DNA of 64,000 bases, taken from contig JAZDQA010000004.1 of the NCBI GenBank assembly GCA_043797085.1, forward strand, positions 96,001 to 160,000. Direction: 5' to 3'. A program made the position numbers. Shown in pieces: positions 37,701-46,700 of the stretch. Position 1 is the first letter of the stretch, and each line of letters begins with the position of its first letter. The stretch is from Pseudomonadota bacterium (GTDB lineage: Bacteria > Campylobacterota > Campylobacteria > Campylobacterales > Sulfurimonadaceae).

Positions 37701-40700
37701 CAGAAGGTGTTGATGTTGAAAACATTACGGCATCCAACAAAGATGGAGTATTGGAAGTAATCATTCCAAAACTCAAAAGTGAGACTGAGAAAGTCAAAAA
37801 AATTGAAGTAAAATAGACGTTATCGTGGAATTTTCTCGTGTTAGAGTATGAGACTATTCCGCAACAACTGATGTTACACATTTAGTAATTTTTTGAACAT
37901 TCAACTCTAACATAAGGAATAATGTATTTTATTTTTCAAAAAGTTACAAAGGAGTTATTGATATGAAAACAATCGTTATCCCTGAAAAAAACGATTTTGT
38001 AACTTTTGAAAGTAACGTTAGAGCATGGTTAAATAATGCAACTGATGACGTATCAGCAGTAAATAATGATCTTAACTCTGCTAATAAATACAAAAACTGC
38101 CTCTTTGAAAATGGTACGGTTATCGGTCGTACCAATGTTGATCTCACGTGTGAAATGGTCACAAAATTAGCCGAATCTTTTGGTTCGATTCTTCCTGTAG
38201 GATCTACTGTCTATGTTTCACGAGATTATCATAAAAGTTCAAGGATGTTGAAGCGTGCTTTTTTAGGCGGTTTGCTTTCGACTGGGATTAATGTCTTTGA
38301 TTTAAAACTCACCTCCCCTGCTGTTATGTGCTTTAGTTTGGCGAAAAACGATCACATCGTTTCCGGAGTGCATTTTGAGCAATCCTTTGAGTGCCAGTGC
38401 AGTACTCAAATCGATTTTTTTACGGACGAAGGTCTCAAGATCGATACCGGCAAAGAAAAAGCAATAGAGCGTATTTTTTTTAGAGAAAATTTTTTAAGAG
38501 TAAACTATACGGATATCGGTGAAATATACGAAAACGGCTATCTTGACAATAGCTATATCAGCCATTTTCTCGAAAGTCTCGACATCTTAGCCATCAAACA
38601 AAAAAAATTTCATCTTGCCATTGATTTGTTGCATGGAACAGCATCCTCCATTTTCCCAGCTATTTTACATGAACTGGACGTTGATTCAGTGATACTAAAT
38701 GCCTATCATAATGATAAAAAACTGACCGAACTTCCCAATCAGCTCCTAAAATCCAAACGAGAACTGTCTAAGATCATTATCGGTATGAAATTGAACTTGG
38801 GTCTTATAATATACCCGGATTTCAAAACACTTGATATTGTTTGTAATACTGGAATTATTTTGGAGCGTTACATTGCTTTATTCGTTTTTTTGGAGCTCTT
38901 AAATCGTGACGGTCATAAAAAAAGAGTTTTATTGCCTACATGGGCTCCTGACTTTATGGATCATCGTTTTCAAAATATAAGCATTGACCGCTTAAAAATC
39001 AGCAATCTAAAAGGAGCTGAACTGCAACAATACGATTTCATCGCAACAACGGAAGCTAACTATTTATTTAGTGAGTTTAGCTTTCATTTTGATTCGCTTT
39101 TTTCCAGTATGAAACTAATCGAGATGCTCAGCCGTGAGAGTGCATTTATCAGTGATATTGCAATGAGTTTCGAACCTTTCTATTATTTTGAAACCAAAAT
39201 AGCATGCGAGAACAGGCTAAAAGGTAAGATGATGCGTAAGTTGTTGGAAGACAGTCTGGATAAAAAAAATACCAATGGTGACGGAATCAAAATATGCATG
39301 AATGAAAAAGATTGGATTGTGATCATTCCCGATCAAAACAGTGACACCCTCCGTTTCTATATCCAAGCGTCAACAACAAAAGCCGGTGAAAAAATTCTCA
39401 AAGAATATACGAAAAAAATCAAACATTGGCTAGACGAATAAGCCTGTGTTCCTAATTATATCGGAGCTCAATTACGTATTATTTCTAAAACAGTGTACAA
39501 TCCTATTTTTACTCCATCAATCAAAGAAGGATAGTGTATGCCATTTACTCCACAGCAGCGTCTAATAATCAAAGAATCGAGTGAAATTTATCGTCAGGAG
39601 ATAGAGCATATCAATGATTTAATTGATAAAGAGTCTGATAATGATCGATGTGACCAACTCTATTTACTTCGTGCGCTCTCTACTATTGAACATGGAAACC
39701 GTATCGGATTGTTCACGAATGAAGAGGGAAGTGAAGAGTTTTTTGAAGCAATGGCAAAGGAAGTAAACCTCTATTTCCCGCATAAAAATGATTCAGAGCT
39801 GTTTGATGATATCACTGTTTTAGAAGAATATGTGAAAAAAAGCTTCTTTGACAACCCTGCAAAAGAAAAAGATATTCTATTAAAGCTGTTAGGGATATCC
39901 CTATAGCTTTTAAATGGCAGAAATTTTATATCTAGAAAGTTCTCTTCCTTTGGTATCGATCACATGAACCGCACACGCCAAACATGGATCAAACGAATGA
40001 ATCACCCGTAATACTTCCAACGGACGTTGGGCATCTGCGAGCTTTATTCCGATAAGCGATTCTTCATACACACCTCGCTGTCCCATAGCATCTCGCGGTG
40101 ATGCATTCCATGTCGTTGGTGCTACGACTTGATAGTTCGCGACTTTTGCATCTTCAATTCGTACAAAATGACCCAAGACACCTCTGGGAACTTCAAAAAT
40201 CCCTGCACCTTTGGATACACTTGGCAAGGCTTCAAAAACATACTTTGTCCATGTTTCTTCATCATAATATTTGATGTTTTCGATTAAATCGCTCATAAAA
40301 TCAAAAAGATAATCGCAGCATATCTGCGCTTCGACGGCACGCGCCGCATTGCGTCCGATGGTTGTCGAAAAATCGATCAGAGTCATTCCCGTATCTTTCA
40401 TAAAACGATCCATATAGGGTTTAATCACTTTAGAGTTTTTCACCACGCCCACGATCATGCGAGCAACAGGACCTACTTCCATCACTTTTCCGCCATAGCG
40501 AGGAGCTTTTACCCAGCTATATTTCCCCTCACTTTTGAGCGTTCCATCCTCATTCAAATCGGTATAAAACGGGACACTCTCTTGATCGTATGGCGAGCTT
40601 GGAAGAGCATCTTCATACCAAGATCGGGATGCTTCTTCTGTGATTTTAGACGGATCAAAAGGTTCTATCGCATCAAAGTAATGCCCTGTAACGACACCAC

Positions 40701-43700: not shown

Positions 43701-46700
43701 GCTTTAGGCTGAGATCCGGTTGCAATTATGAGTTTATCATAGGAAAATGCTGCATGTTCACTTAAAATACGTTTGGTTGAGACATCAATACCGACAATTG
43801 CCTGATTGAGTTCCAAACGTACTTTAGGATCAAGATCAAGGGTAATCGACTCAACGCATTGGCTTTTTTCCACAAGAGCGCAAAGATGAATTCGGTCATA
43901 CGGAGAATGAGATTCCTCAGATACAATCAGAACCTCACACGAACGATCCTTTTGCAATAACGTGTTAGCAAGATATACAGCAGATATTCCACCGCCTACA
44001 ATCACAATCCGCATTCTTTATCCTTGTTATGAACTCTTCACTATTATGCCACATCAATGATAAGTCACGATAAAATAAACACCAATTAGTTATACTTTCA
44101 GTATGGAATCAACTAAAGAGCAACTTATCAGCGATATTCAAAATTTACTGAACCGTTACGACGGATTAAAACCAACAACAATAAATCCAAATCTTTTGCA
44201 ATTTATGGACAAACCAACTCTTCTGCAAATCATTAACTCCGTGTTAAAGCAGCAAGAAAACGCAAATGAAGACAATGTTGAGTGGTTACAACAATTTAAA
44301 ACGATATAATTTTCTTTTTTAATATTGTTAATAACTGTTTTAGAATATAATTACACTGTAAATTACAATGACATTTTTTAACATGTTGTTGAATATCATA
44401 TTTTAGGAGCCTTACCTATGTCTAATATTGACTTGATCCAACTTACAGAACAAACCAAAAAACTTACAGCAATGGTTGTAGAAGACGAAGTGGTAGCCAA
44501 TGACCTTCTAAGTTCTACGTTTAAAAACTTTTTTGCAGATGTAACATCTGCTTATAATGGTGCAGAAGCTTTACGTGTATACGAAAAAATGAATCCGGAC
44601 ATCGTATTTGTTGACATTATCATGCCAGAAATTGATGGTATCGAACTTTCTCGCCGTATTCGTGCGATCAATCCATCACAAATCATTATCGTTATTTCAG
44701 CAAGTAATGATATTCAAAAGATTTCAGAATCAATCGAAGTTGGTGTAAACAGCTTTATCCAAAAGCCAATCGATACTAAAAAAATTCTTGAAATGCTTCA
44801 CAATATCGTTTCCCTTATCTCTAAGCGTAAGAAAATAGAAACAAAAACATTTTCAATCTCATTGCCATTAGATGTATATGAATTGGTAGATGACAATGCA
44901 AAAGCAGAGAGTATCTCTAAAAATGCTGTTATCATCCGTGCATTGCGTTCATTTTACAACTAAATTTTCCTAAGTTTTAGATCATAATGGATTTCCATTA
45001 TGATTTAGCTTTTTTTCAGCTTTTTATCACTATAATTTCGGCTCAGGAATTAATTCCTACAAAAGTGGCTCCATCATCTAATGGTTAGGATTTCAGATTT
45101 TCATTCTGGTCATAGGGGTTCAAATCCCCTTGGAGTCACCATAACACTTTCCCTACACAACGTACTTTCAACCACTTTAAGCTTTATTGGGTCTCCGCTT
45201 GGGTCTCCACTTTTTTCTTTAAGTTTTCATTATTAACCCTATCCTATTTGATTTTTTGCTATCAACTTATTCACTTCTACGATCTTATAAAAGAGTTTTC
45301 CTCCGAATTTATAATATGGTATTTCATTATTCATCCTCATTTTTGCCAATGTCGATTTATTGAATGCGAAAAGGCTAATTAATTCAGCCTCCGTTGCAAA
45401 CTCTTTTTCAGGTTGTATCAGTGCTTTTAACTGCTCCATTATTTTGTTCTGAAACACCACTAAGTCACTTTTAGTAATCAGGTCAATTGTTGCCATCACC
45501 CTGCTCCATTAAAATACAATCTCTTCAGATATATCACGTTTTTCTATTTCGTCCCGAATATCTTGCAAATGTTTAAACGCATTGTCATATGCCATAAACG
45601 GCTCTTCCATTTCACTTTCCATGAAACGCAAATGTTCTAGTAACTCATAGTCAGTTAGCATCTCTAATCTTGGAAATCTATAGGGAGCAAGATATTGTTT
45701 ATAAATAAGCTTGTAGCTAAACTTAAACTCTTTTTTCTTAAGACGCTCTAACTCAGATTGTACTTTTCCATAAAACTGTTCATCAAGAATAACACCATCA
45801 ATATCACATCGTCTATTAAATGCTAAAAAATCTTTGATTGCTTCTGTTTCAGAATATGTTCTAATTTTTCGTTTCAGCCGATGAAGCGGTAAGTCTAATT
45901 GTAAAAAATTCTCAAGCGCGTAGCTCTCTTTTAAGTAAGTCCATAATGGCAGTGTTGTAGCACGGTTCTTATTATTTGAATTTTTCTCATTCTCCGTAAT
46001 ACTGGAAAGATCAACTAAACGTAAAGCATCCATACAGTCTCTAAAGAGCGCATCGGCTTGTTTAAATAAATCGTCAATCGTATTAATGCCATACACTCGA
46101 AGCAAATGCTCGCGATGCATCTCAAACTCAAGATTAAACACCGTTTTTCTTATTTCAAAGCCATTATTTAAGAAATGTTCCCACATCATTTCGTATTTAT
46201 CCGTACGTTCCAGCTCTAAGCTTTTATTGTACATTCGTAAAAGAAACGGCTTTTTTCCAATATAAAGAGTTTGCATTCCATATTTGGACGCAATTTCTTT
46301 AGAAATCGTTTGGTAAATACGTTTACGCGTCACAAACATTTCTTTTGTGATCCATGAAAAATCATCTTGAACAAAGATATTCAAATCCGCACGGGTTATC
46401 GGCTTAAGTCCAGTTATAAAACCATCAAGTAAGTCATCAATAAGTTTCACGATTGCTTTAATGCCAAAAGTATAAATACCTTTCGCGTTTAGCTGAACTT
46501 GAATATTGTGAAGGTTCTTATTTTTAGTTGGGTCTTTGAAAGCAATACGAAAAAGCGAATCTGAATGTTTTAACCAATAAAACCCTTGATCTTTACCTGA
46601 AAAAACTAGCTGTTGTTCATTGATCGTGATTGATATGTCAGAATATTTATACATCGTATTATTCTTTTCAAGTTGTGACTTCTTCTCTTCAATCTGATCG

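Follow-up and report, generated by a model that had tools for sequence, protein, structure and literature searches.

A predicted cytoplasmic [NiFe]-hydrogenase operon from a Sulfuricurvum genome, with a small subunit fused to a flavoprotein and a BFD-type [2Fe-2S] domain

The closest described relative of the operon analysed here is hydrogenase gene cluster I (Tcr2037/Tcr2038) of Hydrogenovibrio crunogenus XCL-2 and SP-41, whose likeness to it we take from the published description; the same 813-aa fused small subunit is treated in three papers (Scott 2006; Hansen and Perner 2016; Gonnella 2019). As described there, the protein resembles the present one in size (about 810 aa), in its N-terminal pyridine-nucleotide-disulfide-oxidoreductase domain with FAD and NADH sites and in the absence of a Tat signal; cytochrome b is also lacking, and the large subunit was assigned to group 1b. 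Cluster I differs in that its structural genes share one operon with the hyp genes (Tcr2035–2043), whereas here the operon comprises two genes. A cytoplasmic H2/NAD(H) role was proposed early (Scott 2006), and Sulfuricurvum kujiense and Sulfurimonas autotrophica were later named as carriers of the unusual small subunit (Hansen and Perner 2016). Since the 2006 publication already had the fusion, the missing Tat signal and the same proposed function, and the 2016 paper carried them over to Sulfuricurvum, the fusion is not new, contrary to what the survey's finding had implied, and the Sulfuricurvum operon is a further member of an enzyme type found in genome papers since 2006. The only physiology that these accounts report for the fused family is negative throughout: H2 was not consumed by XCL-2 under the conditions tested, their text describes no second hydrogenase in that strain, and the hydrogenase activity of SP-41 was found in its membrane fraction, with none in the soluble one (PMC4744846; PMC6501319).

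Within the window, the 64,000-nucleotide stretch of DNA that we analysed, the fused small-subunit gene occupies 41588..44014 on the minus strand (stop codon included), begins with ATG and encodes 808 aa. The protein has four Pfam domains and is built of four parts, in this order: a head for FAD and NAD(P), the BFD [2Fe-2S] domain, a linker, and the core of a [NiFe] small subunit. The gene for a group-1-type large subunit (39910..41595, minus strand, 561 aa) follows with an overlap of 8 nt between its ATG and the small-subunit stop codon (ATGAGTAA); its longest ORF extends to 41706, and homology begins at the ATG at 41595. The survey's two ORFs, with their coordinates, and its four domains on a single ORF were all recovered by translation, Pfam and PDB searches. 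As it had also stated, the operon lacks cytochrome b: Pfam analysis of the neighbourhood found no such gene within about 7 kb. A response-regulator gene lies divergently upstream; among 14 loci examined, it is kept in two at 99% identity, and another locus holds one weak 25% match.

The large subunit is a NiFeSe_Hases protein (residues 41–544, E-value 2.3e-198), matches 1h2a_L at 3.5e-144 in the PDB search and is 47% identical to the large subunit of the genome's membrane-bound hydrogenase (MBH). It contains the motifs RIEGH at 13, RICGVC at 61 and DPCLACAVH at 536, the last followed by a C-terminal extension of 17 aa; the survey had noted such an extension. The genome also contains hypABCDEF, two genes for HyaD/HybD-type endopeptidases and a HypX-like gene, the hyp and endopeptidase genes being on another contig than the operon. 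With a cleavable extension on the large subunit and hyp and endopeptidase genes in the genome, maturation is therefore possible.

The first 390 residues of the small subunit (42845..44014, minus strand) form an FAD and NAD(P)-binding module of the ferredoxin-reductase type, subdivided into FAD, NAD(P) and C-terminal domains, as supported by Pfam, NCBIfam, AF2 and Foldseek. Pyr_redox_2 matches residues 1–269 (6.8e-36), residues 2–302 match 1xhc (4.8e-19) and BphA4 entries in the PDB, and positions 1–471 of the NCBIfam NirB profile are collinear with residues 3–451, at a score (136 bits) below the family cut-off of 578. AF2 models most of the module with a pLDDT of about 84–96, and Foldseek aligns it over about 400 columns with putidaredoxin reductase, TodA and BphA4 (TMt 0.80–0.87), a fold shared with reductases that dock [2Fe-2S] ferredoxins. 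We scored conservation in 241 distinct full-length collinear members, down to 51% identity. The head carries GGG at 7–9 and GxGxxG at 140–145; the Rossmann glycines G7, G9, G140 and G142 are kept in at least 240 of 241 members, while position 145 is G in 164, A in 70 and S in seven. The next motif, A165-R166-K167, aligns with E175-T176-Q177 of BphA4, and the top-scoring BphA4 entry against the head is the variant E175A/T176R/Q177G. In BphA4, Glu175 binds the ribose of adenosine, and the phosphate of NADP was proposed to be repelled by the negative charge of this residue (PMC7397466); in MDHAR, the E196A substitution raised NADP affinity 16-fold (PMC5031999). Arg166 is invariant (240/241) and residue 165 is never acidic (0/241), whereas 20 of the 34 free-standing relatives have E or D there; the pocket for the dinucleotide therefore looks NADPH-type, the preference for NADP being read from three aligned residues only. 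That NAD(P) would be the electron partner is a reasonable inference, and the evidence leans slightly towards a cytoplasmic H2:NADP+ oxidoreductase.

Two cysteines of the head invite another reading. C45 (241/241) and C284 (240/241) are near-absent from the 34 free-standing relatives, where Cys stands at position 45 in one and at 284 in none. The head has no close free-standing relative: sequences at 45% identity or above are pieces of the fused family, and the next ones are at 32% or below. By alignment, C45 directly precedes the Lys that contacts flavin N5/O4, and C284 lies three residues past a Trp of the free-standing relatives, which we equate, by motif only, with Trp278 of FdR9, whose backbone binds flavin O2 (PMC7397466). 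They thus appear to be family-specific cysteines near the flavin, and they would have no role in an H2:NADP+ oxidoreductase. As a redox-active thiol pair, they could instead pass electrons from H2 to a disulfide, a persulfide or polysulfide, or O2, the head then serving for something other than, or in addition to, pyridine-nucleotide binding and the enzyme being sulfhydrogenase-like or detoxifying. The named carriers are all sulfur oxidisers, and CoA-disulfide and CoA-persulfide reductases occur among the fold and sequence relatives. Such a chemistry does not need the NAD(P) domain, yet this domain is fully conserved; the protein carries no fused rhodanese or any other domain that handles sulfur, and the nearest folds found by Foldseek are ferredoxin reductases, not disulfide reductases. 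We consider it quite improbable.

Behind the head follows the BFD-type [2Fe-2S] domain (residues 397–446; 42677..42826, minus strand; Fer2_BFD, 1e-08, 35.8 bits against a cut-off of 26), whose cysteines C399, C401, C434 and C437 are all kept in 241 of 241 members, and then a helical linker (residues 452–504; 42503..42661, minus strand), in which AF2 predicts a helix at 452–484 with confidence falling along it. The second half of the linker (about 473–504) is homologous to the region preceding the Tat motif in the MBH small-subunit precursor: BLASTP against the genome's own MBH small subunit aligns from residue 473, and small subunits without the fusion, from many Campylobacterales genomes, begin to align at residue 452–505. 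Residues 505–530 (42425..42502, minus strand) are a degenerate relic of a Tat signal peptide (MSREYNQWVSMITATMHLHP vs. IDRREFMKWASATTAMLMLPP), as judged from BLASTP and from TIGR00391 (hydA), whose profile positions 17–298 begin at residue 505. Taken alone, this piece matches the MBH small subunit with 34% identity over 61 residues (E 6e-08); its mean hydropathy is −0.29, RR is kept in none of 241 members, and W511, S513, M514, T516 and L521 are invariant in 120 of 120. The survey was thus right that a functional Tat motif is missing, but the flavoprotein does not stand in its place, because the relic persists.

The [NiFe] small-subunit core (residues 531–808; 41591..42424, minus strand) comprises Oxidored_q6 (549–696, 8.2e-27) and NiFe_hyd_SSU_C (716–788, 9.9e-26). 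The match of residues 531–794 to the small chain of E. coli Hyd-2 (5xvb_S, 4.5e-81), the best one for the small subunit and the one on which the survey had relied, was reproduced, as was its reading of the Hyd-2 C-T-G-C motif as C-S-G-N. Aligned with Hyd-2, the ligands are C549, N552, C649 and C683 for the proximal cluster, C764, C783 and C786 for the medial and H721, C724, C749 and C755 for the distal; all 11 are present in at least 240 of 241 members, in line with the survey. The core is 49% identical to the small subunit of the genome's MBH, but where that protein extends into a hydrophobic tail, the fused one has no C-terminal membrane anchor. Its sole hydrophobic 19-mer is a Rossmann strand at residue 131 and not a membrane helix, and no RRxFxK motif occurs in its 808 residues. 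For the full protein, AF2 gave a pTM of 0.57, with pLDDT below 50 over long stretches of linker and core and no confident head–core packing. The operon product is predicted to be soluble and cytoplasmic, in agreement with the survey's cytoplasmic enzyme on a periplasmic-uptake-type core: the location is well supported because export signal, membrane anchor and cytochrome b are lacking, and the architecture because invariance extends over both Rossmann motifs, all four BFD cysteines and every cluster ligand.

This conservation bears on whether the enzyme works at all. Hansen and Perner (2016) suggested, in their account of XCL-2, that function was lost, since a Tat signal, a cytochrome b and 'proper' FeS motifs are missing, and the published activity tests described above show no activity attributable to the fused enzyme. 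A relic, whether catalytically dead or still decaying, or else a sensor that performs no turnover, retained for regulation or some other reason, would also agree with the divergent response-regulator gene and with genomes that hold pieces only or a small subunit without a neighbouring large subunit: two of the 14 loci lack a large-subunit gene within 8 kb, and several gene pieces sit on long contigs, so that the genes may be decaying in some lineages. We nevertheless find a relic or sensor very unlikely. Asn552 is invariant (241/241), as the survey had claimed, but not peculiar to the fused family: CxGN also occurs in the genome's membrane-bound and group-2 small subunits, Asn is a common natural variant present in many other small subunits, and a model enzyme with C81N retains activity. 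The invariance of every cofactor ligand points to purifying selection that keeps a redox chain working, and conservation of the response regulator is confined to near-identical genomes. In addition, contigs of the operon are present in an RNA library, a groundwater metatranscriptome, where they cover 40360–42088, bridging both genes, and 42093–44037 at 99% identity or more; this evidence comes from a single run in a single study, in the form of contigs, with DNA carry-over possible. One contig ends at 44037 with adapter letters, and contigs cannot prove a transcript start. An extended −10-like element, TGgCATAAT (44043..44051, minus strand), read from the sequence 29 nt upstream of the small-subunit ATG, is a weak hint only, and a consensus scan found no excess of promoter-like sites (13, against 13.1 in shuffled sequence).

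As the survey had counted, 850 proteins are homologous to the fused protein at E ≤ 1e-3; among the best 120 of these, 118 measure 794–835 aa, two are fragments (760 and 631 aa), and all 120 carry PF07992, PF04324, PF01058 and PF14720. P0454, the protein of S. autotrophica, aligns collinearly with the 808-aa protein at 55.7% identity. All 11 fused cores analysed form one clade (11/11, SH-aLRT 100), which supports a single origin of the family. Probably, the small subunit of a periplasmic uptake hydrogenase, as a complete Tat precursor, received a NirB-like head at its front, after which the twin-arginine motif would have decayed and the C-terminal membrane anchor been lost.

For the cytoplasmic H2:NADP+ oxidoreductase, we infer which cofactors it uses, the path of the electrons, the preference for NADP and the direction as follows. 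H2 would be split at the Ni-Fe site of the large subunit and electrons would enter the three small-subunit clusters, proximal (Cys3 and Asn), medial (three Cys) and distal (His and Cys3), then the tethered BFD [2Fe-2S] cluster, standing in for the ferredoxin of a ferredoxin–reductase pair, and pass through FAD to a pyridine nucleotide, NADP+ being the most likely one. Scott (2006) had independently proposed the same function. The likely use would be to supply NADPH straight from H2 in a CO2-fixing oxidiser of sulfur and hydrogen and so to save on reverse electron flow; where H2 is very low, the reaction might reverse. [NiFe] enzymes being reversible, the enzyme could also run chiefly in the opposite direction, oxidising NAD(P)H and evolving H2 as a redox valve that sheds excess reductant when acceptors are scarce. 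However, producing H2 from NAD(P)H is thermodynamically unfavourable unless H2 is very low, the carriers, being autotrophs that oxidise H2 and sulfur, require NADPH, and Pfam analysis of the neighbourhood revealed no fermentative context around the operon. This direction is unlikely, even if Scott (2006) offered such a valve as an alternative for XCL-2, where the negative H2 uptake reported would be expected if uptake were not the enzyme's job.

Besides cluster I, three kinds of known system come close to the operon. The group 1b periplasmic, cytochrome-b-linked uptake hydrogenases, such as the genome's HydABC-type enzyme on contig 7 and that of D. vulgaris Miyazaki (1h2a), are represented by the genome's MBH, which shares the ligand pattern including CxGN, the signal-peptide region (a relic here) and the C-terminal extension of the large subunit; the fused enzyme lacks their working Tat motif, membrane anchor and cytochrome b and has about 500 extra N-terminal residues with FAD, NAD(P) and [2Fe-2S] sites. 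The soluble NAD(P)-linked hydrogenases of group 3 (the NAD-reducing SH, 5xf9, and the NADP-linked sulfhydrogenase) carry out the cytoplasmic reaction proposed here, between H2 and NAD(P)+, but they are unrelated in ancestry and build, with separate diaphorase subunits where the fused enzyme has its NAD(P) site on the small subunit; the large subunit matches group 3 only distantly, at 3.6e-25 (5xf9_D) and 2.8e-24 (7t2r_D), far from its group 1 match. The N-terminal half of assimilatory NirB has the same order of FAD, NAD(P), C-terminal and BFD [2Fe-2S] domains, and the oxygenase-coupled BphA4, putidaredoxin reductase and TodA share the fold of the head. Unlike NirB, the fused protein has no siroheme domain, and unlike both NirB and the ferredoxin reductases, its head has an apparently NADPH-type pocket in place of the acidic NADH-type residue and two extra invariant cysteines.

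The survey had described a two-gene operon in which a [NiFe]-hydrogenase small subunit of 808 residues is fused to a flavoprotein and a [2Fe-2S] domain, and ORF reading together with Pfam searches bore out the reading frames, the four-domain build and the two-gene arrangement. Both genes are on the minus strand; the fused small-subunit gene (window positions 41588–44014) is followed by the large-subunit gene (39910–41595; 561 aa), second in the operon, whose ATG overlaps the small-subunit stop by 8 nt (ATGAGTAA). Along the 808-aa protein, Pfam places Pyr_redox_2 at residues 1–269 (6.8e−36), Fer2_BFD at residues 397–446 (35.8 bits, cut-off 26), Oxidored_q6 at residues 549–696 and NiFe_hyd_SSU_C at residues 716–788. 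The proposed Hyd-2-like small-subunit core also stood: residues 531–794 match the E. coli Hyd-2 small chain (5xvb_S, 4.5e−81), the C-T-G-C of Hyd-2 reading C-S-G-N in the fused protein. The 561-aa protein is a full NiFeSe_Hases large subunit (Pfam, 2.3e−198) with the motifs RIEGH, RICGVC and DPCLACAVH and the C-terminal extension previously reported, which comprises 17 residues; its top PDB relatives are all group 1 (1h2a_L, 3.5e−144), against 4.8e−56 for Huc and 3.6e−25 for the NAD-reducing SH. The absence of cytochrome b likewise held, no Ni_hydr_CYTB being found among 15 neighbouring ORFs, and the homologue counts were identical on a repeat search. When the whole protein was modelled with AF2 on a 60-row alignment (pTM 0.57), the head was confident and the linker and core were poor, so that the domain packing is unreadable.

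AF2 gave the head (residues 1–390) pLDDT values mostly of 84–96, and over about 400 columns Foldseek aligns it with putidaredoxin reductase, TodA and BphA4 (TMt 0.80–0.87). Because such reductases dock [2Fe-2S] ferredoxins (PMC5031999), the BFD domain looks, by analogy, like a tethered ferredoxin. Residues 3–451 are also collinear with positions 1–471 of the 794-position NirB profile (TIGR02374, E 1.2e−39). No close free-standing relative of the head was found among the shorter proteins searched, in which every match at or above 45% identity was a piece of a fused-family protein and those below went no higher than 32%. In the dinucleotide pocket, A165-R166-K167 aligns with E175-T176-Q177 of BphA4, and the top-scoring BphA4 entry is an E175A/T176R/Q177G variant. 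R166 is present in 240 of the 241 family members, with V, L, A, S or I at position 165, where 20 of 34 free-standing relatives, hand-picked at 23–32% identity from the shorter-protein search, have E or D. In BphA4 the residue that binds the adenosine ribose is Glu175, for which repulsion of the NADP phosphate has been proposed (PMC7397466), and removal of the equivalent Glu from MDHAR raised NADP affinity 16-fold (PMC5031999). We infer from these three residues that the pocket would accept NADPH. The best available mechanism, which we consider moderately probable, is that the operon encodes a cytoplasmic H2:NADP+ flavo-iron-sulfur hydrogenase.

Two further residues of the head bear on a different reading. 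Cys45 is kept in 241/241 members and Cys284 in 240/241, neither being a cluster ligand, while the 34 free-standing relatives have a Cys at position 45 in one case and at position 284 in none. In the alignment, Cys45 substitutes the Ser of the PYDRPPLSK motif, beside the Lys that contacts flavin N5/O4, and Cys284 lies three residues past the position aligned with a Trp of the free-standing relatives, which we take, only by motif, to be the Trp whose backbone binds flavin O2 in FdR9 (PMC7397466). Since disulfide or persulfide chemistry would suit a pair of thiols next to the flavin, Cys45 and Cys284 might form a redox-active dithiol, and the enzyme might be an H2-driven cytoplasmic reductase of disulfide, persulfide, polysulfide or O2 in sulfur oxidisers, with the NADP(H) site as a second, reversible port. 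We regard this as improbable; if true, it would define a new catalytic type, a flavin-thiol head on a former periplasmic hydrogenase with the signal peptide retained as a structural linker.

The survey's finding that the fused small subunit has no working Tat signal is correct, no RRxFxK motif having been found in it, but the signal was not replaced by the flavoprotein, as a degenerate relic persists at residues 505–530. At the relic position, RR occurs in none of the 241 members, GK, AK and SR being the commonest pairs, and W511, S513, M514, T516 and L521 are invariant in 120/120. The BLASTP alignment of the fused protein with the small subunit of the host's own membrane-bound group 1 hydrogenase (MBH) begins at residue 473, ahead of the core, and in it MSREYNQWVSMITATMHLHP of the fused protein faces IDRREFMKWASATTAMLMLPP of the MBH; the relic-region piece alone matches the MBH at 34% identity over 61 residues (E 6e−08). 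The hydA profile, signal included, matches from residue 505, and non-fused small subunits from many genomes align from residue 452–505 on. Because MBH homology and the hydA profile reach into the signal region, the head was joined in front of a whole Tat precursor. With a hydropathy of −0.29 the relic is not a membrane helix, and the decayed signal is presumably now kept for another, structural reason. The C-terminal anchor of the MBH has been lost from the fused protein. In the excerpts of published accounts of the fused subunit at our disposal (PMC1635747, PMC4744846, PMC6501319), we found no mention of the relic, which is a clear molecular record of a periplasmic enzyme turned cytoplasmic.

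Asn552, at the second cysteine position of the proximal-cluster motif, is indeed invariant in the fused family (241/241 full-length members), as claimed earlier, but it is not peculiar to the fusion. The host MBH small subunit, which carries the Tat motif RREFMK, ends in a hydrophobic tail and has a cytochrome b gene as its neighbour, reads D-C-A-G-N, and the group-2-like small subunit of the host reads T-C-N-G-N. CNGN, CAGN and CSGN thus occur in the host's three [NiFe] small subunits (contig 7, L021:2896–3780 and L021:5953–7191; window 42359–42361). We surveyed the motif in 146 aligned rows, drawn from 150 cluster representatives plus host proteins, of which 101 span it: 61 have CxGC, 22 CxGN (six of these being the query, fused forms or the host's own proteins), 5 CxGD and the rest other variants. 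Asn at proximal position 2 is a natural variant of Cys, for example in Nostoc punctiforme, and a C81N enzyme retained activity (passages of Yonemoto et al. 2014, PMC4070099). The Asn variant is a trait of the host's hydrogenases and not of the fusion; as a hallmark of the fused family it was rejected, because CxGN is also found in the host MBH, the group-2-like and other small subunits.

The family set comprises 241 distinct full-length proteins of 780–840 aa pooled from several searches, two fragments and all duplicates having been removed, and the lowest identity to the 808-aa protein within it is 51.3%. Among 1.84 billion cluster representatives, one homologue, P0123 (53%), is the sole other full-length match, and the family is therefore compact; the remaining matches are fragments, or ordinary small subunits that align from about residue 465–510 on. 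By the names that the homologues bear, the window belongs to Sulfuricurvum. Carriers known by name are, among others, Sulfurimonas autotrophica, S. gotlandica GD1, S. lithotrophica and Ca. S. marisnigri. A full-length fused gene is present in 26 of 401 sampled Campylobacterales genomes, one more copy being cut by a contig end: 5/5 in the host genus, 18/35 in the host family and 5/20, 2/23 and 1/4 in three other families. It was not found in the two largest sampled families (118 and 158 genomes). We built a tree of 84 small-subunit cores, from which only the "fused" grouping was used and motif labels (a loose regular expression) were ignored. The 11 fused cores form a single clade (SH-aLRT 100) in it, nested at no firm position within a 27-row clade (SH-aLRT 94) that also contains the host MBH small subunit and one from Helicobacter. 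Shorter forms and pieces of the gene also sit on long contigs: P0124 and P0278 (600–604 aa, contigs up to 38 kb), P0332 (a 281-aa piece on a 2.9-Mb contig of Sulfurovum sp. CS9) and P0302 and P0354 (pieces on one 112-kb contig). They include a 600-aa form beginning at about residue 192 of the query and a separately called "(2Fe-2S)-binding protein", and are perhaps genes that are split or frameshifted or whose starts were miscalled.

Nothing hydrogenase-related was found among the genes flanking the operon in the window. Downstream are a 122-aa ORF in convergent orientation and PGM-like and HSP20 genes, upstream a 68-aa ORF and a response regulator. A few kilobases away are a cytochrome cd1 nitrite-reductase-like gene of NirS type (32467–34107), a Crp/Fnr-type regulator (34236–34907) and a TonB-dependent receptor (34877–37060). 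On the other side, a tRNA-Glu(ttc) gene (45067–45141, plus strand) heads a low-GC stretch (0.31–0.35) with an HTH_17 excisionase-like ORF (45239–45499), a DndB-like gene (47418–48392) between 437-aa and 295-aa ORFs without family, and a tyrosine integrase (49297–50478); 45067–50478 looks like a small integrative island at a tRNA. Contig 7 carries the host's other hydrogenase genes, namely the group-2-like pair and, with cytochrome b, a HydABC-type pair; with them come hypA and hypBCDE, two HypF-like genes, a HypX-like gene and two endopeptidase genes in tandem. In this main cluster (L021:9843–14135, L021:14216–15336, L022:7691–9388), which holds the tandem HypF-like and HyaD/HybD-type endopeptidase pairs and the HypX-like gene, matches to the first HypF-like gene (640 aa) are confined to the zinc-finger and the last domain of HypF, and the HypX-like gene combines formyl-transferase and enoyl-CoA-hydratase domains.

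A locus search with the 808-aa protein alone yielded six family loci and three unrelated flavoproteins, the former close relatives only. We compared 14 related loci, 2 near-identical and 12 picked for diversity from the 26 genomes. The small-then-large gene order occurs in 12, and hyp or protease genes lie at most 8 kb away in five (L040, L041, L042, L043 and L046); a protease gene adjoins the operon in L042, L046 and genome G231. In L039 and L043 the fused gene is intact, no large subunit was found within 8 kb and unrelated genes follow. In the former (L039:5451–7953) these are short ORFs that by eye resemble a nucleotidyltransferase and a Fic-type protein; in the latter (L043:10481–13388) a protein of 628 aa follows, in which the eye suggests a P-loop-like motif and TPR-like repeats. 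Of the host's large subunits exactly two carry a C-terminal extension, that of group 2 stopping at His, and the HyaD/HybD-type genes, which stand in tandem, are likewise two. A dedicated endopeptidase for the fused enzyme was rejected, because among family genomes in both searches the endopeptidase count does not follow the fusion: where it is present there are two genes each in G000 (the host), G174, G231, G254 and G152 and three in G074; where it is absent, two each in G010, G011, G015 and G213, one in G276 and none in G263 and G030.

RNA evidence comes from run X1, one groundwater metatranscriptome of one study, kept as contigs and possibly including DNA carry-over, in which 90% of the sampled words occur. 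Contigs of this run (at least 99% identity) span 40360–42088, gene junction included, and 42093–44037. The latter closes with adapter letters at a point 23 nt upstream of the ATG and 6 nt downstream of a TGgCATAAT element, although contig ends cannot prove a transcript start; a scan for consensus promoters, with 13 sites where 13.1 are expected, is uninformative. Only 7–8% of words occur in runs X2–X5, and the other two runs of the X1 study, X6 and X7, give no cover, neither of which indicates absence; window stretches uncovered in X1, such as 34000–35601, are no proof of silence. At 41777–41783, a run of seven T (on the coding strand A7, in GAKKGW), the sole X1 contig has one T more, which would put the small subunit out of frame near residue 745; an assembly or homopolymer error in this one contig, at depth 9.7, is the likeliest cause. 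The operon is well conserved and represented by contigs in one RNA library.

The fused enzyme type is not new and has been flagged in genome papers since 2006. For Tcr2037/2038 of T. crunogena XCL-2, passages of Scott et al. (2006, PMC1635747) note the lack of a twin-arginine leader, suggest a cytoplasmic location, propose that electrons pass directly between H2 and NAD(H) and also raise a reductant-sink idea. Extracts of Hansen and Perner (2016, PMC4744846) describe the XCL-2 fused subunit as 813 aa and lacking cytochrome b, state that group-1 FeS motifs "appear not to be conserved", report no H2 consumption by XCL-2 and name S. kujiense and S. autotrophica as carriers of a similar subunit. 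Gonnella et al. (2019, PMC6501319), in the part available, assign hydrogenase gene cluster I to group 1b and locate SP-41 hydrogenase activity in the membrane fraction, not the soluble one; a 2018 review also places the H. crunogenus enzyme in 1b. Our literature search, with most subscription journals outside its coverage, found no biochemical characterisation of the fused enzyme. If it reduces NADP+ directly, it would be a two-polypeptide hydrogenase useful for H2-driven cofactor regeneration, and would explain NADPH supply without reverse electron flow in sulfur- and hydrogen-oxidising Campylobacterota and Hydrogenovibrio. Large-subunit classification files fused-type genes as group 1b, periplasmic respiratory uptake, whereas the small subunit indicates the cytoplasm; because of this discrepancy, in a gene carried by 26/401 Campylobacterales genomes (18/35 of the host family), H2 metabolism in sulfidic habitats is probably being mis-assigned.

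Compared with known systems, the fused enzyme shares with NirB (TIGR02374) the order of FAD/NAD(P)H domains first and BFD [2Fe-2S] domain second, but NirB continues with siroheme/[4Fe-4S] domains (no NIR_SIR was found here), and at 136.4 bits the match stays below the family cut-off of 578. The NAD(P)-coupled hydrogenases of group 3 differ in that 5xf9_D reaches only 3.6e−25 over the N-terminal 117 residues, and in having separate diaphorase/FeS subunits, whereas the host operon has no further subunit genes. With group 1 (the 1b label being that of papers on the H. crunogenus homologue) it shares a group-1-type large subunit with the Ni-Fe cysteine motifs RICGVC and DPCLACAVH, but group 1b enzymes have a Tat-exported small subunit, a periplasmic site and a cytochrome b or membrane partner; as the fused enzyme lacks both anchor and cytochrome b and retains of the Tat signal only a degenerate relic, it should not be counted as a periplasmic respiratory enzyme. 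The nearest likeness is to H. crunogenus cluster I, described as having a small subunit of about 810 aa (808 here) with an N-terminal pyridine-nucleotide-disulfide-oxidoreductase (FAD + NAD(P)) domain, no twin-arginine signal and no cytochrome b gene in the cluster; the evidence for orthology to Tcr2037/Tcr2038 themselves is indirect, in that S. autotrophica, one of the two carriers named in print, has in P0454 a protein collinear with the 808-aa protein over its full length (55.7% identical), and that all 5 genomes searched in the host genus carry the fused gene. The two differ in that hyp genes lie inside the operon in H. crunogenus, whereas the host has a two-gene operon, with its hyp and endopeptidase genes on contig 7.
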